A program made the translations under genes and the position numbers. A stretch of 64,000 nucleotides of DNA from Tubulanus polymorphus (lineage: Eukaryota; Animalia; Nemertea): assembly GCF_964204645.1 (NCBI RefSeq), contig NC_134033.1:5232231-5296230 (forward strand), in the 5' to 3' direction. The notes beneath the pieces are model-generated. The model ran no database searches. It worked only from the letters and a program-made list of their open reading frames with translations, and was not told the origin of the DNA. Shown here piece after piece: positions 3,852 through 62,840 of the stretch. The first letter of the stretch is position 1, and the number at the start of each line of letters is the position of its first letter.

Positions 3852-4361
3852 TTATCCACATGTCAGAGGATTGTAGCAATTTGGTTCCTGTGTGCCTCCT
3901 AGAATGGAATAAATAAACATGAACAAACAGATCTTAATAGCGTAATGCGGAATGACTGTCAATTACCGTTTCCATTTCCATTACCGCCGCCATTTCCACC
4001 GCCGTTTCCACCGCCGTTTCCACCGCCGTTTCCACCGCCGTTTCCACCGCCGTTTCCACCACCGTTTCCACCACCGTTTCCATTGCCATTGCCTTGACGA
4101 ACATGACGTGAATCTGGAAAATGTTGGTGGTATCATAATCAAGTCAGTTCAGCTTTATTTGACCGCATATTTAAATGATGACCTTGACGCAGCGATGCTG
4201 CGATTGAAGATAGGTAATTTAGAATCAAAATCTAAGATTTCATAGCGCAGATCCTCGGCCAGCTCGATCTGTTTTAGCAACTTACGCGCGGCATCTTCGG
4301 AGTTTACAGTCGAAGCAACCAGCACTACCAGAGCAAAGAAGAGTAGCTGTTTGGAAAACAT
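3852..4361 (-). CDS. Secreted Gly/Asn-rich peptide precursor, copy 1 (89 aa): MFSKQLLFFALVVLVASTVNSEDAAHSRHVR|QGNGNG(NGGG)8NGNGNGGTQEPNCYNPLTCG*
   Basis: Coding exons 4361-4286, 4113-3967 and 3898-3852, joined by two phase-1 GT-AG introns; 270 nt stays in frame. Hydrophobic signal peptide. AATAAA on the minus strand at 3826-3821. A non-coding exon 1 ends at a donor at ~5698. Synonymous differences from the paralogs (CTG/TTG, CCA/CCC, CGT/CGA). Confidence 0.85.
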
Positions 4362-4639
4362 CTGAAAGTGATAAATAGTGTACTTTAAAAACAAGTTCTA
4401 TGATGCCCAGTGATACTCATGGACATGTTATTCAATAATGAGTTTCGAAGGTTTAGATAGATAGATATTTATTTTTCGTAAACTGCACATACAACATAAT
4501 TGTATGATTTTTATTTTTTTCTCATAAATACATGATGTTTTCAGGGATACAGTGCGAGCCGAAAGGCTGTACTTAAAAATTAAGGCACTGAAACCCTATG
4601 CATAGTGCATTATTGGTGCAATTGTGTACAAAAGAGATA

Positions 4640-4650
4640 TAGTAATAATG

Positions 4651-4683
<33 letters not shown>

Positions 4684-4875
4684 GTAGTAGTAATAATAAT
4701 GATGATAACAATAATACTAATAATAATAATAATGATAATAATATTAATAGTAATAATAGTAATGATAACATTAATGATAAGAATTACTACACGAATAATA
4801 ATAATCATAAAAATCATAGTACAAATTATAGTAACAGTATTCATGACAATCATAACAGTAATAATGAATTATAAT
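4640..4875. repeat. Degenerate (AAT)n microsatellite in intron 1 of peptide copy 1
   Basis: Direct inspection. It generates the spurious poly-N and poly-I ORFs. Confidence 0.95.
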
Positions 4876-5697
4876 ACAAGAAAAAATAAATTCAATAAAT
4901 TCACGGTTAGAGGCAACGGTTAATGTTAAAATTCTTTACAGTGATCTTATAAACGAACTTAATTTCAATAACTATGAGCAGATAATTTAAACCTTGAAAC
5001 AAGAGAACAGATACTAGGCGCTTTACGAAGATGATCAGGAGTATTTTGCCATATGATAGGTACTTGAGCCAAGAAAGAATTATGAAAAAGTTTAGCGGTA
5101 TGCTGTTGAAATGAGTTTCGAAGGTTTTATATGCGTCTATCGAGCCTCTGTCAAGCTATATATTTTCTGAAAGTACTAAGAGTTACTTAAAAGGTTACGT
5201 TAACTGCTACCAGGGTTGCTACTATTTTTTATTATGAATGTCATCTCGCTCTGAGTGGTCACAAAAATCGAGTTAAAGAATAAGCCCCAGATTAGCTTAA
5301 CCACGTACATCGAACGCGTCTCATGGCAGGATACACGTGTCCAGTTAATGTACATTGTTGGGTTAAATTGCCTAATTCTCGATTGAGGACGACGGTAATC
5401 GTCCAGCAAGTCCTTAGAAAAACGGCAATGCCATTGGGAAAAGGTCTGACGATGGATACTGATTTTGGCTGTGTACCTTGCATTGGTAAAACACATTGGA
5501 ATGCTATAACTATTTTGCATATCTTAGAATTGATGTCTTCAGTTCAGTACCTTATTGTTCGGCCTACTCATGTTAAATATCAGAAGTGTCTAAATTATAA
5601 TCGCCTAAAACGGTGGTTTGAATCACATCACGGTCTTAAGCAAAACGTCACCAAAATCCATAAACATTCTATATCTGCCCTTTTCAAGAGTTCCTAC

Positions 5698-5830
5698 CTT
5701 GATTGCCGCTGTTTAATTCAGGAATGTAATCAACGTATCCTGTCCATTCTGATGTATTAGTCCCTTATATGAAATTTAGTGGGATTCATCGTCACATACT
5801 GGTGCATGTTCTTCTTATCGGCAAACGTCG
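5698..5830 (-). promoter_or_regulatory. Promoter and non-coding exon 1 of peptide copy 1
   Basis: On the minus strand: GATAAG, TGACG, TATA-like CATATAAG (~5771-5764), then a short exon ending AAG|gtagg. The block is conserved in the paralogs. Confidence 0.65.
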
Positions 5831-8727
5831 ACTTTTCTCCTTTTTATCTACGAATGTCAATCACCAGAATACGATACAGCACAAAATGTGGATGAACGTA
5901 TAGATAAAGTCAAGACGAGTATCGAAGATTGAGTGATGACGGCAATAATGCTTGCGTGGGTGAATCGAAAATGAGTTGTTAATAATTTACCAGGTCGTAT
6001 TGTGAGCGGACGCCGTACAAGGTCAAAACTCATCAAATACAATCCCCGATCATCAAAATGTCCCATGCATTAAACTATATTTACTGATATCCAGTAATGC
6101 CTTGATACTTTTTTTCCGTCAGATGCACGTTTCAGACACTTTTTTCCAATCTTGTTAATTGATAGCAGCTAAAAAGAACTGAATTTTCTGGTGAAGTGAA
6201 TTCAAATTATCGGGCACAAAAGGAAAATCAAATTTTTACCAAATCAATCGAAAATTGAGACGAATTTTACAAAAATGTTATGAAATATCGTCGTGAAACC
6301 ATAACGGACGACTAGTAAAGGAAATGGGACCGTACTTCAAGTAATTACAATGGCCAAAATCTAAGCGAACTTTTACAAAATACGTCAAGTAATAAAATGA
6401 TGAAAACGCTAAGTCTTTCCATTGTTTTAATGTCGAACAGTCCAAACAAATGCTCTTTAAATGATGATCCATAGGGGAATCAAAACCACGACAAAGGTCA
6501 TGGTAATTGGAAAGAATGAAGGACCGAGCTGATTGTATAGGAGACGAAAACAAAGTCACCGAAGTTTTAGAATCGTATAAAGATGGGTAATTATCCCGCG
6601 TCCATTAAAGAATGACAATAATAAAGACCCGGATATTCGGCAGAGGTAGGGCTAAATTCGAACATACGATCTGTTGCGAATACGTTATATAATCAAGGTT
6701 TCCTTCAATGTTTTTCAATTGTACATGTGTCAGGCTGTACACATGTACTAGGTAAATAAATCAGATATCAAAACAGAACCTTGTGGTACACCGCATTTAA
6801 GTTTGACTCTTTATCATCTTTCCATTTAGACTATTATTTTGACTAATTTATCACCTAGATAATCGTGAAACCAATATCTATACGCTATGATTCTCTGATT
6901 GTAATGAAGATAAAAATTTACATTAAAATTACCCTTAACCCTTTCTACAGCTAGATCGCAATCAAGATGGCCGACTTGAGTCCAGTTCGGCAAAATCAGC
7001 ATTTAGTTTTTGAATGCAAAATGTTGAAGACGCTCCGATCGATTGTTTCAACCAATCAATCCGACAATTGCCAAATTGTAGCTCATGATATCTAACACTT
7101 CATCGTTATCCAATTTTGACTAAATGTAATACACAGAGTATATCGTGAAGCACATTAATCTCTATATCTTATATAGGTGTTGGTTAGTAGATGGCGCTCC
7201 TACAAAAACCGTCGTTAATTCACTGATTTAAGATTGATTTCGTCCAAATCTAAATACGACATTTCAACCAACTTCTCAGAAAACCCGTTATCGCTGCTTT
7301 GAAGCTATATTTGTAGATTTGTATTTGTATCAAAAATTCTCATGAGTTCATCTCAGGGTGAGGTTGTAGGACGTGAATTAAACTTGTGGTTATTTGACTG
7401 AATTTCCACAGCAGATTTTGGTGCAGAAATATTCACGAATTTCTCATCCAAGTAAAAGTAATGTAAAAATTAAAGACAAAGTTAAAGACATGTTACAAAC
7501 ATGTGACTGAGTGAAGATGTCCAACAAAAAGTCTTTATATACCGGTGATATTGGTTATATTGCAGGAATAGTAGCTGGATGTGTGAACATTGGAAATACG
7601 AGTGAAACAGTAACAAACATCATTGTTGTGCGTTTTGATTTTATACTCCTATGATCAGACGAAACCATTTTTGAACCACTAAATAAGTTTCTAAAATAAA
7701 TCCACTAATATGGCGGAACTTATTTGACAAAGGAGCCAGGAACAGCAAGGGCCACGAGTGCGAAGCTCTCTGCGGAAGGTTTGGGGGTCCTCCCTCCAGA
7801 ACATTGGATGCGTTTTAGAGACGTCGTAATCTGATAAATTTTCTTTGACAAAACTATTATGGAACTCGGGATCTTTTTGGGAGGTGCATTCGCACCCAAC
7901 GCACCCCCTAATTACTAAAGTTCTAATTACAACTTTCCAATGTGGTAAATATACGTATATAAAATTTGTTCTTTTACAAGACCTTCTTTTATGTGAACGG
8001 ATTCCATATCTGAGCATTTTTCGGAATTATCTTTTTCGCCTTTCATTAACAGTTTGCGATGGCTAATGACATAGATTATTTGAAACTAGACTGCTTGTAG
8101 CATACCACATTGCACAGCAGTATTCAACCTCGCTTGCCAGGCAGTGATTGATTGCTCCAACCAACAGATATCCTCATGCCAACACATATCCTGGCCGAAA
8201 TTCCTTCATCGTCAACGACACCGCCCAAGATTTCTTCTGCTCAGCGGCTACCAGTCTTTTTTATCTAGCCATGACGCACCTGATTTGATTTACACAAATA
8301 TTAGTTGACGAAAAGCGGCAACCGTTATTACCACCGTTTCCATTGCCTTGCAACATTGCAACATAAGTAGTCACCAAACCTCAGCCTTACTTAACTGATG
8401 TAGTATAATATGTAATGTTGATATATGCAAATATATGGTGTAAGAAGTTGGGTCCCTTTAGGAGGGTCACTTTGTGGACCACCGGCACCAACACTGTCCC
8501 CTGAGAATGAGCCGCCTTAATTAAGGGGCTATAATGAATAGACATTTAAATGATTGAATAACCCAGCTAAAATGCACCTGAAATAAAGCGTTATCCTTCC
8601 TCTCATCTGAACTAGAATTTCGAATTTTGAATAATAGGCAAACAACAACCAGTATTTACTTCTTCAGAAGAATTTTATTGACGGGAATCTTGCATAATAT
8701 TTGACGAAAGATACTCGAACAATATGT

Positions 8728-9249
8728 TTATCCACATGTCAAAGGATTGTAGCAACCGGGTTCCTTTGTGCTTCCTACAAATACAAACTTGAGGTGTGAA
8801 AAAATTTCAAACAGATTTGAATTACGTAATGCGGTGTGACTGTAAATTTCCATTACCACCGCCATTTCCGTTGCCGCCGCCATTTCCGTTGTTTCCGCCA
8901 TTTCCGTTGTTTCCGCCATTTCCGTTGTTTCCGCCATTTCCGTTATTACCACCGTTTCCATTGCCTTGGCGCACTTGTCGTGAATCTAGAAAATGTTAGT
9001 GGTATATTATTCAAATCTTATATGACACCTTATTATAACATTGACCTCATATTCAAAATGTTAAGTACAAGATGTACAAGATGGTTGCTGCGATTCAAGA
9101 TATTCAACTCAATGTCAAATTTTATTCTCAAATTGTTTAGCGCACATCTACAGGCTACTTGATCTGTACTTACGCGCAGCTTCTTCGGAGTATACAGCCG
9201 AAGCAACCAGCATTACGAGAGCAAAGAAGAGAAGCTGTTTGGAAAACAT
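8728..9249 (-). CDS. Secreted Gly/Asn-rich peptide precursor, copy 2 (83 aa): MFSKQLLFFALVMLVASAVYSEEAAHSRQVR|QGNGNGG(NNGNGG)4GNGNGGGSTKEPGCYNPLTCG*
   Basis: Exons 9249-9174, 8985-8857 and 8774-8728, with GT-AG phase-1 introns at the same positions as in copy 1. AATAAA lies downstream at ~8679-8674. Confidence 0.87.
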
Positions 9250-9664
9250 CTGAAGTTGATACAAATATTTTTTACAATATAATGATATTATATAATTACA
9301 AAAGATATTTACTGGGGACATTTCATCGGTCAACAAATTGCGAACAGTGCGGCTATGAGACGCAAGACAGATCTGACGGATGCTAACTATGGACATTGCA
9401 ACGATCTTGCAAACTCAATGGAAATGATATTAGTGTTTTGCATATTTCATGTGATGTTTTGATATATTTCAGCAATATATTTCCCCTTTGTATTCACTCG
9501 CACTGCTTAGACAATTATTAATTCAGTCTAGACATAACGTTAACCAAAGACGGTGGTTTAGATGACCGGTACTTCAAAGACAAAATCTTCTAAAATCCGT
9601 AGAAAATGATTTTTGATCCACCCTTAAATTTTCCTGATTACTTGTCACTTCTGAGAGTTCTTAC

Positions 9665-9800
9665 CTTGAATGGAGCAGTTCAGGAGTGTACTCGTATCCT
9701 GTCTGGTCTGATTTACCCGTGTCTTATATACAATTTTGTTGGATTCATCGTCACATACTGGTGCATGTTCTTCTTATCGGCAAACGATGACTTTTTCTTT
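9665..9800 (-). promoter_or_regulatory. Promoter and non-coding exon 1 of copy 2 (identical at +5010 and +10020; paralogous at ~24570-24710 and ~30141-30280)
   Basis: On the minus strand: GATAAG at 9778-9773, TGACG at 9753-9749, TATATAAG at 9730-9723, and a donor CAAG|gtaaga at 9665/9664. Confidence 0.7.
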
Positions 9801-10039
9801 TTTAATCATGTTTATGAATCATCAATAGTCTAAAGAGATATACGCAGAGACAACGTCAAGATGAGGAGATTGGTAAACAAAGGCAAATACTAAATGCTAG
9901 TTTGGATGTACTGATGAAAATAATCTTGGTCATATCATGAACGAGGGTACCCCACAAGCTCGGAAAGCTTCAAAATCTACCAAATTATACGCTAATTTCC
10001 AGTTTAGCCTTTCTACTATATACATCATCTATATACGTT

Positions 10040-11200
10040 GTATCGCATCATGTCCAGCGTAAAGAGGTTTTCCATAGAGTTCTGCCAATTTTGTATATAT
10101 CTTTTTAGATGGATTAGACAAGTCATGTTCATTGAAGGGGTTTTCAACTACCCGACGATAAATTCTTCGAATCTCGAACTAAGACGCAAAATGGGACCCT
10201 GTGTTAGTGAACGACAGTACTCTGGTACTACGACCCGTGGGTTGTTGGTAAAAGACAATGTAACAAGACCTGGTTTCTGTGTACTGACTGACTGAGAACA
10301 TTCATTCGGGAGCTCATACAAGTACGAAAAAGAGGATTACTTTGACATTTGAACGGTTTTGAATTTGAACAGTTTTGGTTGATTTGGTGCTATTATATGA
10401 TAGCCTAGTACTGTAATATGAGTCTATTTACAATTCCCGACACCTGGTACTCTCCTTGATGACTATGAACAACACATATAGCTCGATGCGCAAACGTAGC
10501 TCGATAGATTCTGAGTGACATGATCAAATTCGAACCTCTAGCTGCTAGACTAAATGCTAAATTCTAAACAAATTGAAGTCTATGAAGCTTTATTTTTCAG
10601 ATATTTTTCTTCTTCATATAGTACTCGGAGTTACGGATTTTCTTCGGGATATATCTTTTTCTTATAATTGCGACGAGGCAAAAAGGATGAAAAATAATGT
10701 TCTTATAGTTTACGAGTTTTGCGGGATCCAGAGGTGGATCCGAACTCAAAGCAATTAAAAAAGGCATCGAAGTAATCATTAGTCCTTGGCCGGCAGATGC
10801 AAGTTGACATTGGCCCGGCTCATATTCGTCGACGCCATGAGGCGTTAACAACGGGAAGTTTTCGACAGGTACGATTTGTCATTACTGGACCCCCAACAAG
10901 AACAGGATAGGTATAATCACCAATGAAAGCACACAGGTCGATTCCATGCTCGTTTACCATACCCGTGATAATGTGGTGTTGCCCTGATGAATTCTGCCAA
11001 TCAGCATCCTAGTTGAGTTCATGATTCACGAGGATCCAATTAGACTTACGTACTGACGGTCTGAGAACGTACTGACTGTCGAGGTGTTACCCGTGCTTCC
11101 CGCGTATTGGAAAATTAATCTTACATGGAATAGTTCTTTATTACGGCTGTCAATTTTCAGATGTCATTTTGTCAGCAAATGACAAATCAATCCTCTGAAA
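10040..11200 (-). pseudogene. Decayed, unidentified protein-coding sequence upstream of the peptide gene (also at +5010, +10020, 24940-26050, and a diverged fragment at ~30650-30870)
   Basis: Long, stop-interrupted frame (...EPGQCQLASAGQGLMITSMPFLIAL...NLAF[RS]L[VA]AR.SNL...TFAHRAICVVHSHQGEYQV...). The 30.7-kb copy keeps NLAFRLIAETSN with third-position changes (CTC/CTA, TCC/TCG). Confidence 0.45.
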
Positions 11201-11666
11201 CATAACATAAACGTCCGCGTTTTTGTGTTGATATTGTCGTCATCATTTATGTATTTATTACAAACACAACCGTTTTTAATATTGTTTACAGCAAATTTAA
11301 GGAAGGTTCCAGAAATCTAGCGCAATTAAGGCCTACTACGGTTTTGTGCAAGTTTATTATTGTGTAAAACATAAATATAATTGAACTAAATATGAATATT
11401 CGTTGTGAGAAGTTCATTGTCAATGGTGAATTATCTCATAGTAAACCACGTAAACTAGTTGGGGAATGTCTATGAGTTCTATACAGGAAAAACACGGGTA
11501 GAATAGCTTCAAATTTTAAAAGGTTCATAGGGCCACCAGACCTACGTTCATTTCCGCCCAAATTAAAAATGAACCACGTGCTATAGCAGGTGTGGGGGCA
11601 CATTTAGTACCTTCATTCTACCGGCATTCCATTACTTCGTTCAAACATGAAAATTCCACGCATATC

Positions 11667-11930
11667 CATCCTGTCCCGAGAGGGATTCGAACCTAATGGC
11701 AACGAGTCTGGCACAACACCTTTAAAACACGAGTGTGCGGCTCCATGTGTGTGCAGCTTAGATGACTTAGCCAATCACATATCCCGTTTTATTTTAGCCC
11801 GGGCTTTTCCATGTATAGTTTATCGGTGAAATTTACCTCAGCGATAATATAACGGTCAATCTGATTTCGCGCAGATGTTTGCGCATGAATCCTGCGGGCT
11901 TGGGCTAAAGTGTGGCAGTGTTTCTATCTC
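11667..11930. mobile_element. Partial copy of a dispersed foldback/MITE family with tRNA T-loop-like arms (also at +5010, +10020 and ~27135-27390; complete at 53711-54042)
   Basis: Shares gggattcgaacc...gcagcttagatga...ttagccaat...ttttattttagcccggg...gaaatttacctcagcgat with the 53.7-kb element. Confidence 0.65.
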
Positions 11931-13039
11931 AGGACCTAAAGACTTACCTTCCCTTTTGTATCATTTACTGTTTAGTAACGTGTGCAAACCCTTTACCAGT
12001 CATAGTTTGGTATTCACGGATTGTAACGCATTCATACGTCACATCATTCCACCGACCCATGTACGGAGTGTATACGTACGTCATTCCCAGACATGTTTAT
12101 CAACGGTACTACCTATTGTTTATGTGTGACTTAAACATCAGCGCGGGTAGTTTGACTATCCAACACTATTGTACTAAGGTGACAACATAAATATGTTGGC
12201 TGATGAGGACGACAAATCTTCAAATTGATTAAAAATAAATTGTCAGAAAGTTGTTTTCGGGACCTAACCAAAACCTTTTTCAGGACACTCATGGCTTTTC
12301 TGAAAACTATGAGTTTAGTATCACGAAAGTTTTTTAAAAAGGGAAAAATGACTTAGCAATGCAGGATAAAAGTACGCTAACAAAATTGCGGCTAGCAACT
12401 GTAAAATGGTATATAGACCAGACAAGAAGCGTGTTTGAATCGACGCGCGATAATGAACCCGTTAAAACAGTATTCAATCATAAACGTTATTCAGGACAGT
12501 TTGCTGGTTGTAACCAACTGGTAATAATTTTCTGCAAGTGCCTTGGTTTGATTCGTTTCCGTTAATTCAGTTTATTATTCTTTTTTCAATCTTTTTCCAA
12601 CTTTATGTAACGCTATTTAATGTTATCGTGTTGTTTAATATAGTGCTGTTTTCGCGGGAGGTTTTAATTCATGTCAATGTGATGATACTATGTATGGTGG
12701 AGAGGTGCAGTGGCTGGTTGCCGCTGGTCACTGGTCTCGCCGATCCATGGTTTTTGGCTTTCAAACCCTGTTGACAGAGTTGCTTGGTCGAAGGTTCTTC
12801 TCTGGTCTCTCCCCAATCGGGAAAATGCAACTTAATGTGAACTGATTCCATATCTGAGCATTTTTCGAAATTATCTTTTTTCGCCATTCATTCACAGGTC
12901 GCGATGGCTAATGGCATAGATCATTTGAAATTAGGCTGCGTGTAGGATACCACATTGCGCAGCAGTATTCAACCTCGCTTGCCAGGCAGGTGTTTGATAG
13001 CTCCGACAAACAGAAATCCTCATGCCAACACACATCCAG

Positions 13040-13198
13040 GGCAAAATTCGGTTTTTCGTATCTAGTCGACTAGTGGTCGGAACTAATAACCGAATGCGCT
13101 TGATTTTCGAACTATTTGCGGAATATAGTTTCGACTAACGGGCATTTGGTTTCGTTTAGTTCGACTATGGTCGACTAACTCAGAAACCGAAGGTGGCC
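13040..13198. mobile_element. 159-bp MITE with CWG target duplication, PIF/Harbinger-like (also at +5010 and +10020)
   Basis: cag|GGC..TTCGGTTT...AAACCGAAGGTGGCC|ctg. The paralogous empty site has a single ctg at 8191-8193. Confidence 0.7.
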
Positions 13199-13737
13199 CT
13201 GGCCGCAGTTCCTTCATCGTCAACAACACCGACCACCAGTCTATATATCTAGCCAACCATATGCATGTTTTGATGGAATCTACCTGCGAAAATGACGCAC
13301 CTGATTGGGTTAACACAAATATTAGTAGACGCAAAGCGGCAACTTTTCCGCTCGTGCAATCTTGACAAGGATAAGAAGTCACCAAACCTCAGCCTAACTT
13401 AACGAATGTAGTATATAATATATAATGTCGATCAATGCAAATATACGGTGTAAGAAGTTGGGTCCCTTTAGGAGGGTCACTTTGTGGACCATCGCAACCA
13501 TCAACACTGTCCTGAAATGAGCCGCCTTAATTTAGGGGATATAATGAATAGACATTTAAATGATTGAATAACCCAGCTAAAATGCACCAGAAATAAAACG
13601 TTATCCTTCCTCTCATCTGAACTAGAATTTCGAATTTTGAATAATAGGCAAACAACAATCAGTATTTACTTCTTCAGAAGAATTTTATTGACGGGAATCT
13701 TGCATAATATTTGACGAAAGATACTCGAACAATACGT

Positions 13738-14259
13738 TTATCCACATGTCAAAGGATTGTAGCAACCGGGTTCCTTTGTGCTTCCTACAAATACAAACTT
13801 GAGGTGTGAAAAAATTTCAAACAGATTTGAATTACGTAATGCGGTGTGACTGTAAATTTCCATTACCACCGCCATTTCCGTTGCCGCCGCCATTTCCGTT
13901 GTTTCCGCCATTTCCGTTGTTTCCGCCATTTCCGTTGTTTCCGCCATTTCCGTTATTACCACCGTTTCCATTGCCTTGGCGCACTTGTCGTGAATCTAGA
14001 AAATGTTAGTGGTATATTATTCAAATCTTATATGACACCTTATTATAACATTGACCTCATATTCAAAATGTTAAGTACAAGATGTACAAGATGGTTGCTG
14101 CGATTCAAGATATTCAACTCAATGTCAAATTTTATTCTCAAATTGTTTAGCGCACATCTACAGGCTACTTGATCTGTACTTACGCGCAGCTTCTTCGGAG
14201 TATACAGCCGAAGCAACCAGCATTACGAGAGCAAAGAAGAGAAGCTGTTTGGAAAACAT
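13738..14259 (-). CDS. Secreted Gly/Asn-rich peptide precursor, copy 3 (83 aa, same protein as copy 2)
   Basis: Exons 14259-14184, 13995-13867 and 13784-13738; this is the +5010 copy. Confidence 0.85.
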
Positions 14260-18747: not shown

Positions 18748-19269
18748 TTATCCACATGTCAAAGGATTGTAGCAACCGGGTTCCTTTGTGCTTCCTACAA
18801 ATACAAACTTGAGGTGTGAAAAAATTTCAAACAGATTTGAATTACGTAATGCGGTGTGACTGTAAATTTCCATTACCACCGCCATTTCCGTTGCCGCCGC
18901 CATTTCCGTTGTTTCCGCCATTTCCGTTGTTTCCGCCATTTCCGTTGTTTCCGCCATTTCCGTTATTACCACCGTTTCCATTGCCTTGGCGCACTTGTCG
19001 TGAATCTAGAAAATGTTAGTGGTATATTATTCAAATCTTATATGACACCTTATTATAACATTGACCTCATATTCAAAATGTTAAGTACAAGATGTACAAG
19101 ATGGTTGCTGCGATTCAAGATATTCAACTCAATGTCAAATTTTATTCTCAAATTGTTTAGCGCACATCTACAGGCTACTTGATCTGTACTTACGCGCAGC
19201 TTCTTCGGAGTATACAGCCGAAGCAACCAGCATTACGAGAGCAAAGAAGAGAAGCTGTTTGGAAAACAT
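18748..19269 (-). CDS. Secreted Gly/Asn-rich peptide precursor, copy 4 (83 aa, same protein as copy 2)
   Basis: Exons 19269-19194, 19005-18877 and 18794-18748; this is the +10020 copy. Confidence 0.85.
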
Positions 19270-23757: not shown

Positions 23758-24288
23758 TTATCCACATGTCAAAGGATTGTAGCAACCGGGTTCCTTTGTG
23801 CTTCCTACAAATACAAATTTGAGGTGTGAAAAAATTTCAAACAGATTTGAATTACGTAATGCGGTGTGACTGTAAATTTCCATTACCACCGCCATTTCCG
23901 TTGCCGCCGGCATTTCCGTTGTTTCCGCCATTTCCGTTGTTCCCGCCATTTCCGTTGTTTCCGCCATTTCCGTTATTACCACCGTTTCCATTGCCTTGGC
24001 GAATTTGTCGAGAATCTAGAAAATGTTAGTGGTACGTTATTCAAATCTTGTATGACACCTTATTATAACATAACATTGACATTATTCAAAATGTTAAGTA
24101 CAAGATGTACAAGATGATTGCTGCGATTCAAGATATTCAACTCAATTTCAAATTGTATTTTCAAATTGTATAGCGCACATCTACAGGCTACTTGATCTGT
24201 TAAAGAACTTACGCGCAGCTTCTTCGGAGTATACAGCCGAAGCAACCAGCATTACGAGAGCAAAGATGAGAAGCTGTTTGGAAAACAT
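23758..24288 (-). CDS. Secreted Gly/Asn-rich peptide precursor, copy 5 (83 aa): MFSKQLLIFALVMLVASAVYSEEAAHSRQIR|QGNGNGG(NNGNGG)3NNGNAGGNGNGGGSTKEPGCYNPLTCG*
   Basis: Exons 24288-24213, 24015-23887 and 23804-23758, with intact splice sites. TATATAAG at 24640-24633; exon-1 donor at 24570. Confidence 0.85.
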
Positions 24289-27200
24289 CTGAAGGTGATA
24301 CAAATATTTTTACAATATAATGATATTGTATAATTACAAAAGAAATTTACTGGGGACATTTCATCGGTCAACAAATTGCGAACATTTCCCCTTTGTATTC
24401 ACGCGCACTGCATAGAAAATTATGAATTCAGTCTAGACACAATGTTAACCAAAGACGGTGGTTTAGATGACCGGTAATTCAAAGACAAAATCTTCTGAAA
24501 TCCGTAGAAAATATTTTTTGATCCACCCTTAAATTTTCCTGATTAGTTGTCTCTTCTGAGAGTTCTTACCTTGACTGGAGCAGTTTAATTAAGGAATGTA
24601 CTGGTATCCTGTCCGGTCTGATTTACCCGTGTCTTATATACAATTTAGTTGGATTCATCGTCACATACTGGTGCATGTTCTTCTTATCTGCAAACGATGA
24701 CTTATCCTTTTTTATCACGTTTATGAATCATCAATAGTCAATAGAGATATATGCAGAGACAACGTCAAGATGAAGAGATTGGCAAACAAAGGCAATACTA
24801 ATGCTAGTTTGGATGTACTGATGAAAATAATTTTGGTCATATCATGAACGAGAGCTTCCACAAGCTCGGAAAACTTCAAAGTCTACCAAACTATACGATA
24901 AAATGTCCAATGTAGCCTATCTACTATATACATGGTCTATTTACATTGTATCGCATCATGTTCAACTGTAATGTCATCGTAAAGAAATTTTCCATAGAGT
25001 TCTGCCAATTTTGTATATATCTTTTTAGATAGATCATTTTCATCGAAGGGGTTTTCAACTAACCGACGATTAATTCTTCGAATCTCTAAGCAAGACGCAA
25101 AAGAGAACCCGGTGTTAGTGAACGACTGTACTGTGGTACTATGATCCGTGGGTTGTTGGTAAAAGACAATGTAACAAGACCGGGTTTCTGTGTACTGACT
25201 GACTGAGAACATTTATTCGGGAGCTCATACAAATACGAAAGAGAGGATTATTTTGACATTTGAACGGTTTTGAATTTGAACAGTTTTGGTTGATTTTGTG
25301 CTGTTATATAATAGCTTAGTAACAGTAATTTCAGTCTATTTACAATTCCCGACACCTGGTACTCTCCTTGATGACTATGAACAACACATATAGCTCGATG
25401 CGCAAACGTAGCTCGATAGATTCTGAATGACATGATCAAATTCGAGGCTCTAGCTACTAGACGAAATGCTAAATTCTAAACAATTTAAAGTCTATGAAGC
25501 TTTACTTTTTAGATATTTTTCTTCTTCACATAATTCTTGGAGTTTCACGGATTTTCTTCGGGATATATCTTTTTTCTTATAATTGCGACGAGGCAAAAAG
25601 GATGAAAAATAATGTTCTTATAGTTTCCGAGTTTCACGGGATCCAGAGGTGGATACGAATTCAAAGCAATTAAAAAAGGCATCGAAGTAATCTTTAGTCC
25701 TGAGCCGGCAGATGCAAGTTGATATATTAGTGATTATCGGACCCCCAACAGGAACGCGATAGGCATAATCACCACTGAAAGCACACAGGTCGATCCAACG
25801 CTTGTTTACCATACCCGTGATAATGTGGTGTTGCCATGATAAATTCTGCCAATCAGCATCCGAGTTGAGTTCATGATTCACGAGGATCCAATTAGACTTG
25901 TCTGAGAACGTACTGACTGCCGGGATGTGACCCGCGTATTGGAAAATCAATCTTACATGGAATAGTTCTTTATTACGGCTGTCAAATTTAAGATGTCATT
26001 TTGTCAGCAAATGACAAATCAATCCTCTGAAACTTAACATAAACGTCCATGATTTTGTGTTGATTATTGTCATCATCATTTATATATTTATTACAAATAC
26101 AACCGTTTTTAATATTGTTAACAGCAAATTTAAGGAAGGTTCCAGAAATCTAGCGCAATTAAGGCCTACTTCGGTTTTGTAAAAGTTATTGCGTAAATAT
26201 AAATACAATTGAACTAAATATGAATATTCGTTGTGAGAAGGAGTTCATTGTCAAAGGTGAATTATCTCATAGTCAACCATGTTAACAGGTTGGAGAATGT
26301 CTATGAGTTCTATACAGGAAAAACACGGGTAGAATAGCTTCAAATTTTAAAAGGTTCATATGGCCGGCCACCAGACCTACGTTCATTTCCGCCCAATTTA
26401 AAAATGAACCAACCCACATATTCCTCACGCTAAGGATATCCACCGATTAAATAATAGTAGTACTCGTGTAATATATTTGTTTGATATAGCGCAATATCTA
26501 CTGAGTATTCTCTGCGCTATGCATAAGATGTAGGCTACATCAACTTTCTATCCACCAACACACCAACTAGCTGCTAAAAATTGGAAGTAAACTTTTAAGT
26601 TATTGACATCATAAATCTTCCATAAGCACACTGAAGCTCTCGATTCGGCTGATTGATAGTGACGTCTGTTCTGCTCGTGAATATTCATTAGAGATATTGA
26701 CTACGTGTTTTGTGTATAGTTCTGCTATTTGATATCGGTTAGACGGCAAGATGAAGAGATTTTTCCACGATAAATTCATGTAACCTGAAGAAGAGTATTC
26801 TAAGATACCCGTCGTAAAGTCATTTAAGAGGTGCGGGTTCAAGGGTCAAATACAATATGACCAAATTTTTAACTACAATCAAATCAGAATCCTGGGAAAT
26901 GATTTAATTCGTATTTTCACAACTTGGTGAGAGCTATATTTGCAGCTGCTTGTGCACACTGTGTGAAACGCGAAACATTTAATGAATCTATCTATTGTTA
27001 GGTCATCCTTATATCCAATACAACATTATCAATATTATCATTACGTGCTATAGCAGGTGCGGGGGCACGTTTAGTACCTTCATTCTACCGGCATTCCATC
27101 ACTTCTTCCATTACCAAAATTCCACCACGCATATCAGTCCTGCCCAGAGAGGGATTCGAACCTAATGGAAACGAGTCTGGCACAACACCCTCAACACGAG

Positions 27201-28911: not shown

Positions 28912-29431
28912 TTATCCACATGTCAAAGGATTGTAGCAGCCGGGTACCTTTGTGCTTCCTACAAATACAAAATAAGTGTGAACAAGTTTCAAACAGATTT
29001 TAATTACGAAATGTGGTGTGACTAAATTTCCGTTACCACCGCCGCCTCCATTTCCGTTGCCGCCGGCATTCCCGTTGTTTCCGCCATTTCCGTTGTTTCC
29101 GCCATTTCCATTATTACCACCGTTTCCGTTGCCTTGGCGAACTTGTCGTGAATCTAAAGATGTGAGTGGTAAATTATCCAAATCTGCCCACGGAGCGCCG
29201 GCAAAACACTTTATATAACATTGACCTCATATTTAAAGGATTACTTATACACAGACTGGCTGCTGTGATTCAAGATATTCAACTCAATGTCAAATACTAT
29301 TCTCAAATTGTATAGCGCACATTTACAGGTTACTTGATCTCTTTAAGTGACTTACGCGCAGCTTCTTCGGAGTATACAGCCGAAGCAACCAGCATTACGA
29401 GAGCAAAGAAGAGAAGCTGTTTGGAAAACAT
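28912..29431 (-). CDS. Secreted Gly/Asn-rich peptide precursor, copy 6 (79 aa): MFSKQLLFFALVMLVASAVYSEEAAHSRQVR|QGNGNGGNNGNGGNNGNGGNNGNAGGNGNGGGGGSTKVPGCYNPLTCG*
   Basis: Exons 29431-29356, 29153-29037 and 28958-28912. TATATAAG at 30211-30204; exon-1 donor at 30141. Confidence 0.85.
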
Positions 29432-31536
29432 CTGAAAGTGATACAAACATTTTAAAACGATTTGACGATGCTCAGCGCAATTTGATAATGATGACTTCAA
29501 CAGCTTATGCGATCTTTAAGCTTCGCTTAAACTATATATTTATCGCATTAAGTTAAAATAGATGATCTGGGACTAGGGTTGCTCACTGTTTAATTTCACT
29601 GATGCCAATTCACCTCGCAACAAGCAGCAATCACAAATAAATATTTGACTCAGGACCTAAATATTTGGCTTAGGAGGACCTTGAGGACGTATTTCGAGTG
29701 CGACTCGTACTATAAGATACTTAGTCAGTGCCAGATATATTTTTGTTTTTGGGCCAAATAAATACCCAATTCATTTGATGAAGACGGTACGCCGACTACG
29801 CGCATTTTATCGGTCTGTAAAAAGTGCGGCAATGCAACCATTAGAAACGGCTGACGGATACCGATTCTAACTGTGGACCGTGCAACGATAGCTAAATTTG
29901 AATGATATCATTGTTTTGAATATTCTAAAAATGATGTTTTGATGTATTTCAGCAGGAAAGTTCCCCTTTGTAAGCACTACCACTACTTGAGATAAATACC
30001 AATTATGTTCGTAGAATAATGATGACATAAGAAGGTTTATTAAATTGTATCAAAGTACGAATGAACCAAAATCCGTATGAATGTTTTTCATCTGCACTTT
30101 TCAATTTTCTTGAATAATATACTCTTCGGAGAGTTCTTACCTTGACTGTAGTAGTTAATTTCAGGATTGTAATCGTATCCTGTTCGGTCTGATTTATTTG
30201 TCCCTTATATACAATTTAGTGGGATTCATCGTCACATACCGGTGCATGCTCTTCTTATCAGCGAACGATGATTTTTCCTTTTTTAATCACGATCATTAAT
30301 CATCAATATTCAATTGAGATATACGCAAAGACAACGTCAAGACGAAGAGATTGACCAACGAAGCCACTAATGCTTGGATAGATGAATCGAAAACAGAATT
30401 TTGGGCATATAATATGTGCATGAACGAGTACATTCCTTCCCTCAAGCTTTAAGTCCAGTGTAGCCTATCTACTATACATCATCCATACATTCAATCCCTA
30501 CCAAACTACATTATGTGCTTTAATGCCCCGTATACGTAGCCTATTTTCTATACTTTATCCCGTTTGGAATTCTGAATCTTGTTCACAGGATGCAAAACCA
30601 AAAGAAGTTCTTCAAACATGGCCAATATGCCAAGTAACACGTCACGAAAGCTACTAGCTACATGTACGGACGAGGGCTAAGACTCGTAGACCTGGTACCC
30701 ACCTCAATGGTGAAAGATTACACCTTAAATTCAATGCGGAAACGTAAGCTAAGATATAGAATCGGAGTAATATGACCAATTGGAGGTTTCAGCAATGAGA
30801 CGAAATGCTAAATTTGGAATAGTTTAAAGTCTACTAAGTTGACATTGAGATATTCTGCCGACAATAAATCGAGTAAGAGGTCTTGTTATGGAAGCTGTAA
30901 TTTCCGCCAACGTTGTAGGGAATTAATGTCCTCTGCCAGTGTTAGGTCGGTGTCTTTCCTCTAACTGATATCTAACTGTGTATCTATCTAATCAGTGCTT
31001 TAGATACATATATATTATCTCACCGGCTAGTTAATATCCTCTTTTGTGTAAAAACAACTTCTTGAGTCAATTCATCCATCTGTATATTTTCTCAGCCGAA
31101 CAACTCTGATAGTCGGTGTTGTCATATCGCGGAATGACGGAATCGTGGAATTTTCGAAGAACACGGAATTCTTCATTTTCACAGTAACTTCGTTTTCCCA
31201 CGGAAATATACCCTTTGTCGGACAAGGCGCCGGACGCATGTTTTCAATACTGGTACCTGGTTGGCCTATCGTCACTCAACAAATTAACAACACTTCTCAA
31301 CGAGAAAATGGCAACGTAAAACGCAGGCAAAGATCCACCAGTATTGACTGCAGTTCCCAGTGCCTTGTGTATCGGCCCTGTTCCCGTAGCAGTACGTCGG
31401 ATGAGACCGCATATAGGAACTGTGCGTATATCACCACTTAAAAACCTCAAGGGCCGCCTCAAAATGGCGCCTGGTAACTAGAAACCTCCCTATTGTCTTC
31501 GCCATACTTCGTTTTGGTACCGGGTACCCCTTTTCC

Positions 31537-31688
31537 GGGGCCGTACCTAGCACTTGATTTTTAGATGGACAGAGACATCCGAAAGAGAGCAGTTCTATAG
31601 GATATACGTAATAATAACATTTGCAAAAAGGCACTTTTTCAAAATTCCTAGGAGGCAACTGCCCCGCGCCTGCTAAATACGGCTCTGT
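31537..31688. mobile_element. ~150-bp MITE (TIR ~GGCCGTA..TAGC); an inverted relative lies at ~37270-37400
   Basis: ggggccgtacctagc...gctaaatacggctct. Its reverse complement matches the insertion in exon 4 of copy 7 (ggggcagt...gtgcc(c)tttttgcaaat...gcta.g.acggcccc). Confidence 0.55.
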
Positions 31689-32001
31689 CTTCAGAAACCC
31701 TAGGCGCACTTATGGCCTTGACGCCTCGTGATTTTGCTACGCTTCGTGATTCTGCTTCGGTCGTCTTTCAGAAATACGTTCTAGTAAGAGAATTTATATT
31801 GAGTGAACTTACGAAAACTATATTCCTTAATACACGTGCACATTGTGTTTATATGGACGATTGGTATATGAAAATTATAAATCTAAAGATCACGTTACGT
31901 TCTACGTGGCAGTTTTGAACCATCAAGCTGGCGGCGATATTTTAATCAGCAAATGTTCATTGTTATCATCCGACCAGGTGAAATACTATACCTGAGATAC
32001 C

Positions 32002-32676
32002 ACGGGTAACGTAGTCATTACTTTTTATCTATTTACATACGAAGGTGAAATGTAATCCTCCGTTCACACACGCTGACACCCATCCTGTCGATAATGAGTG
32101 TCAAATGAGATGTACCCTCGGTAACCTACGCACATCACTTTCGCTTCAGTTCCGTGGCGGACCTTCCCTGGACTTTTGATTTTTGGATTTGCCATATTGA
32201 TAGTTACTGCGGTGAACGCACTGGTTCTATATCTCACTCCAGTTTTGTCGATACATTTTACCGACCAGTTTTTCGGATGTTACTACGAATTATCGGATCA
32301 AATAACATATTACACCAGTATTGTCATCCACATTCATATTATACCTTTAACTCTGATTATAACATCGAACGCCGTAATAATAGTTCAGTTATTCATAGGT
32401 TCAAAAATGCTATTGTCGGGCAAGAAAACTACCGACGCAAAACGTACGACAATAATGCTTGTAACAGTTTCGCTCGCATTTGCAATATTCAATCTCCCCC
32501 CTGCTATCATTACAGTTTTACCAATCTCACCACATCACAGAGACTTTCTACTGGAAATTTTCACTCAGATTCAGATTTGTAACTATGTAGTTAATTTCTA
32601 CATATATCTTTTACTGGGACGAGAAATTCGTGAATATTTCTGTATGAAAATGCGCTGTAGAAATTCAGACAAATAA
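32002..32676 (+). pseudogene. Intronless class A (rhodopsin-type) GPCR pseudogene, FMRFamide/sex-peptide-receptor-like group
   Basis: The ORF 32176-32676 covers TM4-TM7 (...KRTTIMLVTVSLAFAIFNLP...QICNYVVNFYIYLLLGREIREYF). Upstream lie a TM1 remnant (TGNVVITFYLF, ~32002) and a frameshifted TM3 (ILSIMSV..SVTYAHHFR). TM2 appears to be missing and there are in-frame stops. Confidence 0.75.
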
Positions 32677-34099
32677 CCAATGGTTTCATGTCTTGTTTGG
32701 AAATAGTGTGATTATAATTATCATAACCACTTTGAGTTGAGAATTTATGTCATAGAATATGTCATAGAAGCGTGTATTAACCCTCTAGTGCCCGGACATA
32801 GACCCAGGCTTGAAAAAAAATATTTGAAGTGTGAAATCAGTAGCAATGAGGCCAATAAACATTAATATGTGCAAAAAATCAACAAAAAGAAATTTGGACC
32901 ACATTTTGGCAATGTTGTAATTTTACAACAGTGGGCTATAAGGGTCACAAAAATGAAATTACCAAAACTTTCCAAAATTTCCCAAAATCTTCTGAATGAC
33001 TAAAGCCTCACAAATCAAGTATCAGACGGTATATAAATGCAAAATTTATGATTTATTGTCACTTAGGAAGTATATTTTCAACGCTGTCGATGTCACCCTC
33101 GTCATAGTTTTCCTCGTCATTGCCATCCTCTAGAGCATCCATGACATCACAGTCGTTTTCATACCTTGTTTTACTTCCATCCATATTATCTACAATGAAT
33201 GAAACACTGCATTACCAGTATTATACTGAGGGACGTGATGGACACAAACCAAAAATGACCGCAATTTTACATTTCATTTTCTATTTTTGTGGGGCCTATC
33301 GGTTATTTCAAAAAGGAAATCACCCCTAGTAGGTGTGTAAGGCTCTAAAATGCCAGGAATGCCAAATAGATATAATTACTCCAACTACCAAAATTTATTT
33401 GAGATAAACTTGAGTTGCCTAAAAGGCCCGATGTTGCAATAATACAACACCAAAAATTGGCCCTGTCTGACGACGGAACGAGCTCCTTAACATTATTCAT
33501 ATATTTGTAATGATAGAAAACGGTTAAAAAAACAGTGATGCATACCAACTAAATTTTGACGATATTTTGATGAAAAAACATTTCTTATCACGGTGAGGTG
33601 GAATGCTTACTTCCTGGTTGTCGTTGTCAGTCTTACAGCTAGATAGCGCCACTTTATGGTTGTAATCCGGGAAAAATCTAATCCGAGGAGGGGGTGGGGG
33701 TAGCCATAATTGCGGAGGATTCCTTTCTGAAAAGTTCCGAAAGATATCTAATCCGAGGAGGGGTTGAGGTAGCCAGAATTCCGGAAGATTCCGCAGAACA
33801 TCTAAACCCTGACCATCTTAACCCTATCCCGAATTGAATTGAAATGAGCTGGTCACTCAATCGCCATCAAGCTGAATAATACGGTTTTCAAATTCATTTG
33901 GAGTCCAACGACTGAGGTCACTGAATATTGCGACTTTCTTACCTGTGAAATAAACCAATTCGATAAGCCTATGGCGTAGATAGGGTTTTTTAACCGTAAC
34001 TCGTCCTGAACAACACCAACAAATGAAAAAGGCATTGAACGCGACCTAATTGAGATAATTGATTTTTTTTTCAAAATAAGCTCAAATGAACCTTTCAAT

Positions 34100-34158
34100 C
34101 TTTTACTGGGACGAGAAATTCGAAAATATTTCTGTGTGAAAATCCGCTGTAGAAATTC
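34100..34158 (+). pseudogene. Short duplicated fragment of the GPCR helix-8/C-terminus
   Basis: ttactgggacgagaaattcgaaaatatttctgtgtgaaaatccgctgtagaaattc closely matches 32611-32666. Confidence 0.7.
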
Positions 34159-34659
34159 CTCATTCACTCTATATTACTCAAGATGTCAGTGATAGGTTTC
34201 TCAAATCAATTTTTGCTCTTCTTTCTCAAGAATGTTTAATGTGAAACGAAGATGGCAAGCCGCTTTGCATTTTCTAATCATTACTAATTTTCATTCAATA
34301 TTCGTTTAATTGACAAAGTTGATACTTAATTGAGTTGTTAAAGATCTAGACAGCCTGGCGGTAAGCTAATATTAGGCATGATATGTGAAAAAATACTAAT
34401 AAAACGCTCGTAACAGTTGCATAATAAAATGTCACTTATTTGTGATAACAGGCAAACTTCCGATTTCCGATATAAATGTTCCGGAGATTTGATTTCGATC
34501 ACCCCATAAAGTATAGAGGTCCCTCTTATTACAGGATGGTGCCAATACACCACGACGTAGAGGAGTTTTGTAATCGGATACTCATTGTCTAGACATCTAT
34601 TCTCTTATCTAAAACACGTGCTGTCGAATGATGTAATAAAAATGAAAATCTTTAGTTCG

Positions 34660-37450
34660 CAGATAAGAACATGCACCTGTTTGTGACGATGAATCCCACA
34701 ATCAGACCGGACAAGACACGAGTATATTCCTGAATTATTTACGTTTGTCGTCATAGGTAAGAATTTAGAATATGTAGCTTATAGATTGAAGAGCAGAATA
34801 ACATTTTCACGGATTTTGTTGATATAAGGGTTTTTCGTTTTAAATGCCATTGACACTTTGATTTTCAAATTTCTATTCCAGAGCTTGATAGTATAACACT
34901 GCTTTACCAATTCAACATTTCTCATCATAATCTTGCAAAATTATTTGGGTAATCAACCTTTATGAACATCTCGAAGTGCACGCCGTTGATATGCGACCGA
35001 ATTATCGGGTAGATTTCTTCGATATTATATTTCAGAGTTGGTTATTCAATTCAGTTGGTCTCTAGTAACATCCGGGTCGATTATGCAATTCAATAAGCAA
35101 TAACTCCCTGACTGATAATGATATCTGAACACGTCAGTTTTCCATTTATCAGGCTCATTGTTATAGATATTAAAGCCATAACTTACGTTATCGTCGGATG
35201 AAATGAAAAAGGCTTAAGGATGATTTGATGATATTAAGTAATAAAGATTTAAGTTATTACAATCTATGAGAAACAGATATTTGTCATTTGGAGTTCTTTC
35301 CGATGTCTTTATTAGCAGACTCCGGAGACGCACTCGGAGTTAAAAGTCTCGGAAGCCAAAGGTAAGCGTCGTTTTTAGTATTGTCAAGCCAGGGGGTGTG
35401 ACCTACTCGGTTACAGTGATTCACCTAGTTACGGTGACTCGACTTTTAGACAATGTTTAAGTGACTTAAAGGTATTAAACCTTTAGATTATGTTCGAGCG
35501 AATGAATGATTCTGGTTTGGATAATTCATTTGCGCTGATGTTTCCCGGGCCATTCGAAATCATCATTCATCATCGTTGTCTCAGTCGTTGTCGATGTCTC
35601 CATCATCAACATCAACACTAACATCAACATCAACATCACCATAAACATCACCATGAACATCAACAACATCACTATCAACATCACCATCAACATCACCATC
35701 AACATCACCATAAACATCACCATCAACATCAACAGAATCACTATCAACATCACCATCACCACCACCATCAATATCACCATCAACATCACCATCAACGTCA
35801 ACAACATCACTATCAACATCACCATCAACACCAACATCACCATAAACATCACCATCAACATCAACAGAATCACTATCAACATCACCATCACCATAAACAT
35901 CACCATAAACATCGTCATCAACATCAACAAAACAACATCGCTATCAACACCATCAACATCACTATCTTACATTTAGACACCTTGTATTCAGTTCACTCCT
36001 GTTACACGCCAAAGCGGAAACATTTCAAGACGACCCAATTTTAGTTCAAGACGTTAAAATAAACGCAGTCCAGATCTAGAATATATATTCTATAGGCAAG
36101 ATAAGATGGTTCATCAAGACGTAGAATATTGCGATCCTGTATTTCGTAAATCACTGCTAGTATGCTGATATTTTCAGCATAATTACCCTTTATATTCACG
36201 AAAAGGTCATCGTAGTTTATATCGCTATCCGATGCTACATACAAGAAATGAAGATATCATATAAGCGAGGATATAACGTGTTAAACTCTGTTTTCAACAT
36301 TGTAACCGCGCGGTTGCACCAATCATATGACGTCATGAATCGCCTCTGCTTAACCAAGATACCAACAGACAATATTTGGCATTAAAGACTATATATTGAT
36401 ACAAATTCTTAATAACATTATTTTTCTTATGTCCCACATACTGTATATGTCGTGAATATGGTGTTTTTTTCTGCTCAATAAGCGTTGTACTCCTCGGTAC
36501 AATATCTAAAAAATTGAAATATATTCTGCATAGAAAGCAATGCTGATCTAATCCCGTTATGCCTTCCTTTTTTAGTTTATATTATCGCAGTATTCCAGCA
36601 TTTTATTCTGTCCGCTTGGTGGACGTAGGCGTAATTCTTGGAAGTCTAAATCTTATAATGCGTGGTACAATGACCTTTAAGAGTTCTTAGTTTTCGCGAA
36701 GAGAGAAGTTTTATACGTTAAACCTTCGCAACTAACTATTGAACGAGACCATCGATATCGAGTTACGGTATTTTTTCACTTTCCAGATTCCAAACACCTT
36801 CTCTTCTGTGCTCTCGTACTGCTGGTTGCTTCCGCTGTATACTCCGAAGAAGCTGCGCGTAAGTTACTTAAACTAAAGACATCGGTGCTATGAAGTTATG
36901 AATTTTGATCCTTTTTCAATGACTCGAATATCTTGAATCGCTGTATTCTGTTATGTCCACGTTTTCCTTTTAATCGCTGTTTACTCTCACGTCACTGTTA
37001 AAGACGTTACATATAGGTGCTTCATTACGAGACTGAAAAACCTTTATTTTTACAGATTCACGACGTCAAAGTCGTCAAAGCAACGGAAATGGTAACGGAA
37101 ATAATAATGGAGAGGGAGCTGTTTACGGAAGGGGAAAAAGTAATTGATAGTCATGCCGCATTACGTTATTGAAATTGGTTTTGAAACTTGTTTACGCTCA
37201 AAATTTTCCTTCATCTAGGAGGCACAAGACACGCATGCTTTAACACTTATTTGTGCACAGCATGGTACCCGGCCGTCAATAGCTGGGTCAGGGGGCAGTT
37301 TTTTTCCCTTGACAGTTTTGTGCCCTTTTTGCAAATATTATTTTCATCATCCAATATAACTGTCCTTTTTTCGAAAAATTCCAATGCTAAGCACGGCCCC
37401 GCATTCATGTTTCTTTTGTCAAATATCATCCAAGATACCCGTCAATAAAA
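34660..37450 (+). pseudogene. Inverted copy 7 of the Gly/Asn peptide gene, probably inactivated
   Basis: The promoter block (GATAAG 34662, TGACG 34684) has lost its TATA segment. Exon-1 donor at 34756. Exon 36787-36858 (SKHLLFCALVLLVASAVYSEEAA) lacks 4 nt, which destroys the ATG. Exon 37056-37139 encodes HSRRQSRQSNGNGNGNNNGEGAVYGRGK. The exon from 37219 encodes RGTRHACFNTYLC, followed by a MITE where the G-stop should be. The paralogous 3'UTR with AATAAA resumes at ~37444. Confidence 0.75.
35600..35965. repeat. Degenerate (CATCAA/CATCAC)n hexamer repeat
   Basis: Direct inspection. It generates spurious INIT/MLMV ORFs. Confidence 0.95.

Positions 37451-47086: not shown

Positions 47087-62840
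<15,754 letters not shown>

Follow-up and report, generated by a model that had tools for sequence, protein, structure and literature searches.

A gene cluster for a putative secreted peptide

The locus described here lies in a 64,000-nucleotide stretch of the genome of the nemertean Tubulanus polymorphus (NCBI RefSeq assembly GCF_964204645.1, contig NC_134033.1, positions 5,232,231 to 5,296,230 of the forward strand), referred to below as the window and numbered from its first letter. It holds a cluster of genes for a putative secreted peptide, made up of six intact genes and one pseudogene, with the intact copies all on the minus strand (Table 1). A preliminary description of this DNA had counted seven genes; six of them stand, but the seventh has lost its TATA box, its ATG and its Gly-stop. 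The ring motif C-Y-N-P-L-T-C-G-stop was detected six times, on the minus strand, in a six-frame motif scan of the window, and its back-translated pattern gave 6 matches against 0.00 expected from 100 shuffles. In each of the six copies it is found about 90-210 bp downstream of the motif R-[HQ]-[VI]-R-Q, which starts a tract of Gly and Asn.

Gene models built from the coordinates yielded six open precursors. Each intact copy comprises a non-coding first exon and three coding exons, separated within the coding part by GT-AG introns of phase 1. The first coding exon (76 nt) begins exactly at the ATG, directly behind an AG acceptor, and the ring exon measures 47 nt. The tract exon is 147, 129, 129 and 117 nt long in the four distinct copies, and the frame is preserved in all of them. 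Since the coding sequence is identical in copies 2-4, the six intact genes specify four distinct products. The three coding exons were thus found where they had been proposed, while a conserved promoter and non-coding exon upstream had been overlooked. For copy 2, the proposed junctions 9174/8985 and 8857/8774 would, if spliced as predicted, give an open frame of 83 amino acids (aa). Intron phases are identical across the copies, as had been claimed, but the position of the second donor differs between copies 1 and 7 and copies 2-6.

Table 1. Coordinates of the peptide genes and associated features. The first exon listed is non-coding in copies 1-6.
Feature	Position	Strand	Start codon	Exons	Precursor (aa)	Remarks
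Copy 1	3852..5800	-	4361	5698-5753; 4286-4361; 3967-4113; 3852-3898	89	intact, most diverged; 44-aa tract
Copy 2	8728..9800	-	9249	9665-9712; 9174-9249; 8857-8985; 8728-8774	83	intact; AATAAA at 8679
Copy 3	13738..14810	-	14259	14675-14722; 14184-14259; 13867-13995; 13738-13784	83	intact, coding as copy 2
Copy 4	18748..19820	-	19269	19685-19732; 19194-19269; 18877-19005; 18748-18794	83	intact, coding as copy 2
Copy 5	23758..24710	-	24288	24570-24622; 24213-24288; 23887-24015; 23758-23804	83	intact; tract with one Ala
Copy 6	28912..30281	-	29431	30141-30193; 29356-29431; 29037-29153; 28912-28958	79	intact; poly(A) signal GATAAA
Copy 7	34640..37450	+		34701-34756; 36787-36858; 37056-37139; 37219 onward		inverted pseudogene
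Promoter block, copy 2	9713..9800	-				presumed function, see text
Tandem array, copies 2-5	8271..24384					5010-bp period; three intergenic unit bodies differ at 1-2/3890 bases
Rhodopsin-type G protein-coupled receptor (GPCR) 3' relic	32125..32676	+				about transmembrane helices 4-7; PF00001, E 1.2e-4, below curated cut-off; open 183 aa, without first helices; lies upstream of copy 7 in the same orientation
Further GPCR piece, 60 bp	34100-34159	+				lies upstream of copy 7 in the same orientation
Second GPCR relic, stop-interrupted	7387..7686	-				lies upstream of copy 1 in the same orientation; shares 52% identity over 98 aa with the 32125..32676 relic

Self-BLAST and alignment revealed that a TATA-type promoter and the short non-coding exon with its good donor form a conserved block upstream of every copy. 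The non-coding exon is located 0.4-1.3 kb upstream of each of the six intact ATGs; in the two copies scored, its donor agrees with the consensus at 7-8 of 9 positions. In copy 2, the putative promoter contains a GATAA-like element, a TGACG half-site at about -41 and TATATAAG some 20 nt before the presumed start. The leader exon of copy 1 carries a five-codon upstream open reading frame (at about 5730-5747, minus strand) that is absent from the other copies.

Precursor and predicted mature peptide

The precursors (79-89 aa) share one order of parts: a signal peptide, a short acidic spacer, an RxxR-Q site, the Gly/Asn tract, and C-Y-N-P-L-T-C-G followed directly by the stop. This anatomy had been proposed earlier and is backed by the sequence and by the selection described below; the tract, for which 30-45 aa had been claimed, measures 33-44 aa. 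The first 21 residues contain a hydrophobic core, and by a heuristic assessment small residues permit a signal cut after position 16, 17, 18 or 21. Arg at -4 and -1 and Gln at +1 are kept in 7/7 copies while the middle residues vary, a pattern which fits a processing site. From established peptide chemistry we predict that the signal would be removed, a convertase would cut after RxxR, the new N-terminal Gln would be converted to pyroglutamate, the last Gly would be given up to leave an amide, and one disulfide would be closed. The expected products are peptides of 47-57 aa and 4.1-4.7 kDa, blocked at both ends; with these modifications, the calculated monoisotopic masses are 4739.8 for copy 1, 4541.8 for copies 2-4, 4555.8 for copy 5 and 4126.7 for copy 6.

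The peptides carry a net charge of -1, 0 or +1 and, apart from the ring, hardly any hydrophobic residues. The tracts contain 9-13 Asn-Gly pairs and no acidic residues. Asn-Gly is reported as the fastest-deamidating pair in unstructured peptides, with a half-life of days (PMC4682632). If the tract is unstructured, its Asn-Gly pairs would deamidate slowly and the tail would become acidic over days. The internal register of the tract is not fixed: copy 1 has a 4-residue period, copies 2, 5 and 6 have Gly at every third position (12/12, 12/12 and 10/10), and copy 7 has a period of about 2, in neither the 3- nor the 4-residue register. AlphaFold produced no confident structure for the tract (mean predicted local distance difference test score 43.8, which from a single sequence is weak evidence). 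Because the period is not conserved and the model is of low confidence, a collagen-like or ice-binding regular fold was rejected.

Evidence for coding and purifying selection

Copies 1 and 2 are 90.8% identical in exon 1 and 87.2% in exon 3, both ungapped, compared to about 59% in both introns. Measured against the ungapped intron rate, the conservation of exon 1 is significant for copies 1/2 (p 1e-4) and copies 2/6 (p 6e-6), and so is that of exon 3 (p 0.016 and 0.024, respectively); the intron distances of the oldest copy pairs, 0.27-0.34, compare to a shuffled-intron baseline of 0.41. The ratio of replacement to synonymous change (dN/dS) between copies 1 and 2 is 0.24 over 51 alignable codons (Fisher p 0.004), and 0.10-0.51 in other pairs, two of which are not significant. 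Coding differences had been called mostly synonymous or conservative; by count, those between copies 1 and 2 are not mostly synonymous (10 synonymous, 9 replacement); the intact copies are nonetheless under purifying selection. In the ring codons only synonymous differences occur, between intact copies whose introns are 27-32% apart.

In the four distinct tracts, 58/58 AAn codons specify Asn and none Lys, while the third position of the Gly codons varies freely. Composition is thus kept although length varies from 33 to 44 and the period is 4, 6 or about 2, and because of this we read the tract, from its sequence, as a linker under compositional constraint in which length and period may change.

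The best-conserved part of the gene is the signal exon. Copy 6 and copies 2-4 have one and the same sequence there, though the first intron of copy 6 is 17% apart, and exon 1 of copy 7 groups weakly with exon 1 of copies 2-4 and 6. This hints at gene conversion limited to exon 1, with low tree support.

The least certain element of the gene models is the second donor. In copies 1 and 7 it reads GTAATT and matches 7/9 consensus positions. The aligned position in copies 2-6 is GA, and the nearest in-frame GT, 6 nt upstream, has 5/9 consensus matches. There is a phase-1 GT in every GGT codon, so any choice of donor would keep the ring in frame and alter only the length of the tail. That copies 2 and 6 have kept exon 3 alike speaks for the use of some donor. 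Contigs of three public runs from one study, one of them perhaps the source of the window, carry the locus including the introns. Four runs were compared with copy 2; they showed no GT-AG joint, and the one presumed to be RNA contributed no contig, a result that speaks neither for nor against splicing. The second intron of copy 6 (28959-29036, minus strand) is 78 nt long, in frame and stop-free, and its retention would still yield the ring; the open frame is probably a matter of chance.

One may ask if the cluster might be untranslated as modelled, and consist of copies in decay, of simple repeat or of an array inflated in assembly. The second donor is weak, and with middle units as nearly alike as these three, the number of units could be specific to the individual or inflated. 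Against this stand the exon-specific conservation, the frame-preserving tract lengths and the Asn-only AAn codons, and even with copies 2-4 collapsed to one, four distinct intact copies remain. We consider this explanation very improbable: the cluster is real, selected and recently amplified.

A decayed and inverted seventh copy

In copy 7, a clean 24-bp deletion has taken out the TATA box and a 4-nt deletion the start codon, and there is no upstream ATG in the leader exon. The ATG-less junction is also found in contigs of two public runs (loose ends at 9244), which makes an assembly slip unlikely. The Gly-stop is lost as well, and duplicated pieces of the 3' untranslated region follow the ring. 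Read in the frame of its paralogues, copy 7 retains the signal, the RxxR-Q site, an Asn/Gly stretch of reduced length and, as its ring, C-F-N-T-Y-L-C. The pattern C-aromatic-N-x3-C occurs seven times in the 127,996 codons of the window, in exactly the seven copies, and its chance of arising in a three-codon slot is about 2e-5. A diverged ring kept together with signal and RxxR-Q site indicates that a diverged paralogue once existed, and C-aromatic-N-x3-C would then be the constant of the family. A conserved signal exon next to a diverged ring is, by analogy, a pattern like that of secreted peptide superfamilies.

Traces of further members were seen in the public runs. In three of four runs, loose contig ends at 9218 share the first 11 signal codons and then differ, continuing with another hydrophobic stretch; in one run, a loose end at 9186 shares 21 signal-exon codons and then differs. 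Further genes with the same signal-peptide start, forming a superfamily, are therefore likely elsewhere in the genome.

History of the array

Copies 2-4 lie in 5010-bp units that are more than 99.9% identical. According to the intron distances, copies 1 and 7 split first (0.27-0.34), followed by copy 6 (0.15) and copy 5 (0.04), and last by copies 2-4. The near-identical units and the staged distances bear out the recent amplification that had been proposed. Over 8400-9900, contig depth of the copy 2-5 type relative to the copy 7 type was about 2.5-fold in one run (74-80 versus 30) and about 1-fold in two; depth is not copy number, and the difference hints weakly that copy number varies between samples. 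At 8322-8350 (minus strand), some 380 bp downstream of copy 2 and near the end of the array, 29 nt of the tract exon recur exactly; the corresponding position behind copies 3-5 lacks them.

Relics of a rhodopsin-type GPCR lie upstream of, and co-oriented with, both copy 1 and copy 7 (Table 1), which indicates that the oldest duplicated unit carried one. The idea that these relics represent the receptor of the peptide is unsupported, as no relic is complete.

Relatives and comparison with known peptides

The queries used to search for relatives were single exons or intron read-through, and the spliced precursor was not among them. A protein search with the exon 2-3 read-through of copy 6 returned eight matches at E 1.6-7.6, all generic Gly/Asn-rich sequences, and the signal region gave no candidate in the protein search. 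HMMER over 1.84 billion representatives gave one match, a repetitive 1080-aa sequence whose likeness is limited to a short stretch of what the intron codes for in the query. Nothing usable for the peptide came from Pfam, from PDB sequences or from the ESM Atlas, and Rfam returned 0 matches. Matches to a DNA pattern (6 metagenome and 3 viral contigs) were all one locus with a stop-riddled frame beside an open one, and were dismissed as chance. As a control, the GPCR relic, which belongs to a known family, likewise found no match among 583 longer candidates and in PDB, so the blanks for the peptide are weak for this lineage. Literature searches with the ring motif, five motif variants, the tract motif combined with precursor terms, and descriptive terms found nothing matching the peptide among the papers listed; one motif match was a synthetic library peptide. 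Among the orphan precursors in the text of three echinoderm catalogues, figures aside, none is alike, and the supplement files of two of these catalogues contain no motif match. The earlier statement that the architecture belongs to no known family thus agrees with the absence of a protein, family, structure or literature match, but the searches behind this apparent novelty cover animal lineages poorly. A cluster of secreted prepropeptides is a known kind of locus; this architecture, for which we found no match, would be new.

Several known ring peptides share parts of the design. CCAP has the layout P-x-C-x5-C-G, that is, a Cx5C ring followed by a Gly amide donor, as found here; in its ring, Asn follows the first Cys, and an aromatic residue and Gly precede the last, so that the ring residues differ from ours. 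NG peptides have Asn-Gly in common with the tract, at the head of a short peptide there and in a long tract here. Their precursors in deuterostome invertebrates are described as carrying a neurophysin domain (PMC4772807), whereas our precursors have none, the stop following directly after the ring Gly; this sets them apart from the CCAP, NG peptide and NPS group.

Allatostatin-C and somatostatin types are two-cysteine peptides from the precursor's C-terminal part (PMC8851493), and the likeness consists in a two-cysteine ring at the C-terminal end of the prepropeptide. The core is Y-N-P in the six intact copies, a conservative variant of F-X-P, and F-N-T in copy 7, without W-K (PMC8851493, PMC7536072). 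Protostome allatostatin-C has six residues between the cysteines, and somatostatin types more, and its first intron is in phase 0 (PMC7536072), whereas here the ring holds five, Tyr replaces Phe, the first intron is in phase 1 in all copies, and a long Gly/Asn tail and six gene copies are added. The resemblance had been called loose; it does fail on ring size and intron phase, but the ring itself (aromatic-N-P-aliphatic-hydroxyl-C) is closer than was claimed.

These likenesses raise the possibility that the peptide is an internal hormone or neuropeptide, in kind like allatostatin-C, CCAP or the orphan ring-amides, whose N-terminal extension would be unusually long. It would account for the position of the ring, the predicted amide and the F-X-P-like core, and orphan two-cysteine amidated precursors described in echinoderms provide a precedent. 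The five-residue ring and the phase-1 intron argue against it, as does the lack of a dibasic site beside the ring. To our knowledge, neuropeptide genes are also seldom amplified sixfold. We regard an internal hormone as improbable.

A matrix, mucus or biomineral peptide is rather unlikely but deserves more weight. Its tract would form a gel or would bind calcium or mineral, and bind them more strongly once deamidated, and its cysteines would cross-link chains; high dosage would suit a structural product. In nacrein and N66, a Gly-Xaa-Asn domain is reported to regulate calcification (PMC6599672), and Gly at every third position in copies 2, 5 and 6 is similar. This register is common to copies 2-6, but it is absent from copies 1 and 7, and an invariant ring with a Gly-stop exceeds the needs of cross-linking. 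Moreover, the repeat of nacrein and N66 is part of a carbonic anhydrase, with Asp/Glu at Xaa, whereas here it belongs to a free peptide with a predicted ring-amide end and a never acidic Xaa. No carbonic anhydrase domain was matched by Pfam in the 79-89 aa precursor, and no lectin domain is present.

The Rana box of frog skin peptides is a C-terminal Cx5C ring in precursors with a signal and an acidic spacer, all found here, but there a cationic amphipathic helix precedes the ring and here a neutral Gly/Asn tract, and only here does a Gly-stop follow. A host-defence peptide of mixed type, with a low-complexity N-terminal and a cysteine-containing C-terminal part, acting on microbes in a non-lytic manner, is possible, if clearly short of likely. 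Signal, acidic spacer, RxxR, the pyroglutamate and amide that we predict, amplification in tandem and the death of gene copies are usual in antimicrobial peptide genes, and the GATA-like and TGACG elements of the promoter would fit. Penaeidins, arasin 1 and crustins have a similar two-part layout, and penaeidin-3a is reported to carry pyroglutamate (PMC10608444). However, those peptides are Pro/Arg-rich or cationic with 4-12 cysteines, and mixed types such as penaeidin and arasin are cationic and amphiphilic with 4-6 cysteines. Most such peptides are described as cationic and amphiphilic (PMC10608444), whereas ours is neutral with two cysteines and hardly any hydrophobic residues beyond the ring. 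There is no cationic peptide for the acidic spacer to neutralise. A kappaB-like site, by one consensus, was found in none of the 5 promoters scanned within 500 bp upstream.

A possible role for the peptide

Defence or toxin, pheromone and structural functions had all been left open. The charge of -1 to +1 weakens membrane-lytic defence, and the changing period weakens a regular structural role. The reading that we tentatively prefer, at somewhat less than even confidence, is a bulk-secreted, end-blocked peptide in which the seven-residue ring would bind a specific target and carry a neutral, flexible, deamidation-prone tail. The ring is held constant, which points to a specific binding partner; the tail is neutral and variable, which suggests a spacer; and six copies suggest bulk release. 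That the genes were duplicated repeatedly, with recent units nearly identical and one copy dead, fits a product needed in quantity. The target would most likely be a receptor, with the peptide released exocrinely as a pheromone or defensive signal, and the Gly/Asn tract may affect solubility, diffusion or retention. Consomatins, somatostatin-like venom peptides of cone snails, for which exocrine use of an amplified ring-type signalling peptide gene is reported (PMC9048919), show by analogy that such recruitment occurs. The likeness is that of a repeatedly duplicated ring-type peptide gene, an analogy for a possible way of working; no sequence relationship was seen, and the W-K motif is absent here.

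Several observations weigh against this preferred reading. Purifying selection and an invariant ring are unlike the rapid directional change reported for consomatins (PMC9048919), and receptor binding does not require a long tail. Amidation, pyroglutamate and tandem amplification are described as equally typical of antimicrobial peptides (PMC10608444). The second donor of copies 2-6 has the same score as donors where the tract begins, and an early donor would leave a tail of 5-6 residues. If the second intron were retained, copies 1-5 would terminate without the ring.

A bolder version can be put forward, but we hold it to be improbable. In it, the genes would be the first examples of an animal peptide family so far unrecognised, and receptors of conspecifics, predators or prey would be the target of a contracted, allatostatin-C-like ring. 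The Asn-Gly tail would serve as a chemical timer, neutral at release and polyanionic after days, and alternative in-frame donors at Gly codons would set its length.

If the ring is a receptor ligand, it would represent a new invertebrate signalling or defence scaffold, and if tail deamidation matters, a rare built-in expiry clock on a secreted peptide. Purifying selection together with very recent amplification suggests that the animal probably needs much of the peptide. Short spliced peptide genes of this type escape ordinary annotation. The peptide is small enough to synthesise, and the predicted masses permit direct testing.

Other features of the window

Beyond the cluster, an uninterrupted piggyBac-type transposase frame of 594 aa (PF13843, E 8e-82) was found at 41923-43707 on the plus strand. 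A GC-rich open frame at 62553-62861 (minus strand) has no Pfam or Atlas match; it has a strong donor-like site near its end and is possibly an exon of a neighbouring gene. Two satellite-like families occupy two places each (1209-1750 and 48791-49512; 44750-45473 and 59923-61283), and long TA and GA microsatellites lie at 57956-58085 and 59050-59470. Finally, TAGGCCTA, which is known from echinoderms among other groups, is enriched, with 12 occurrences seen against 0.8 expected.

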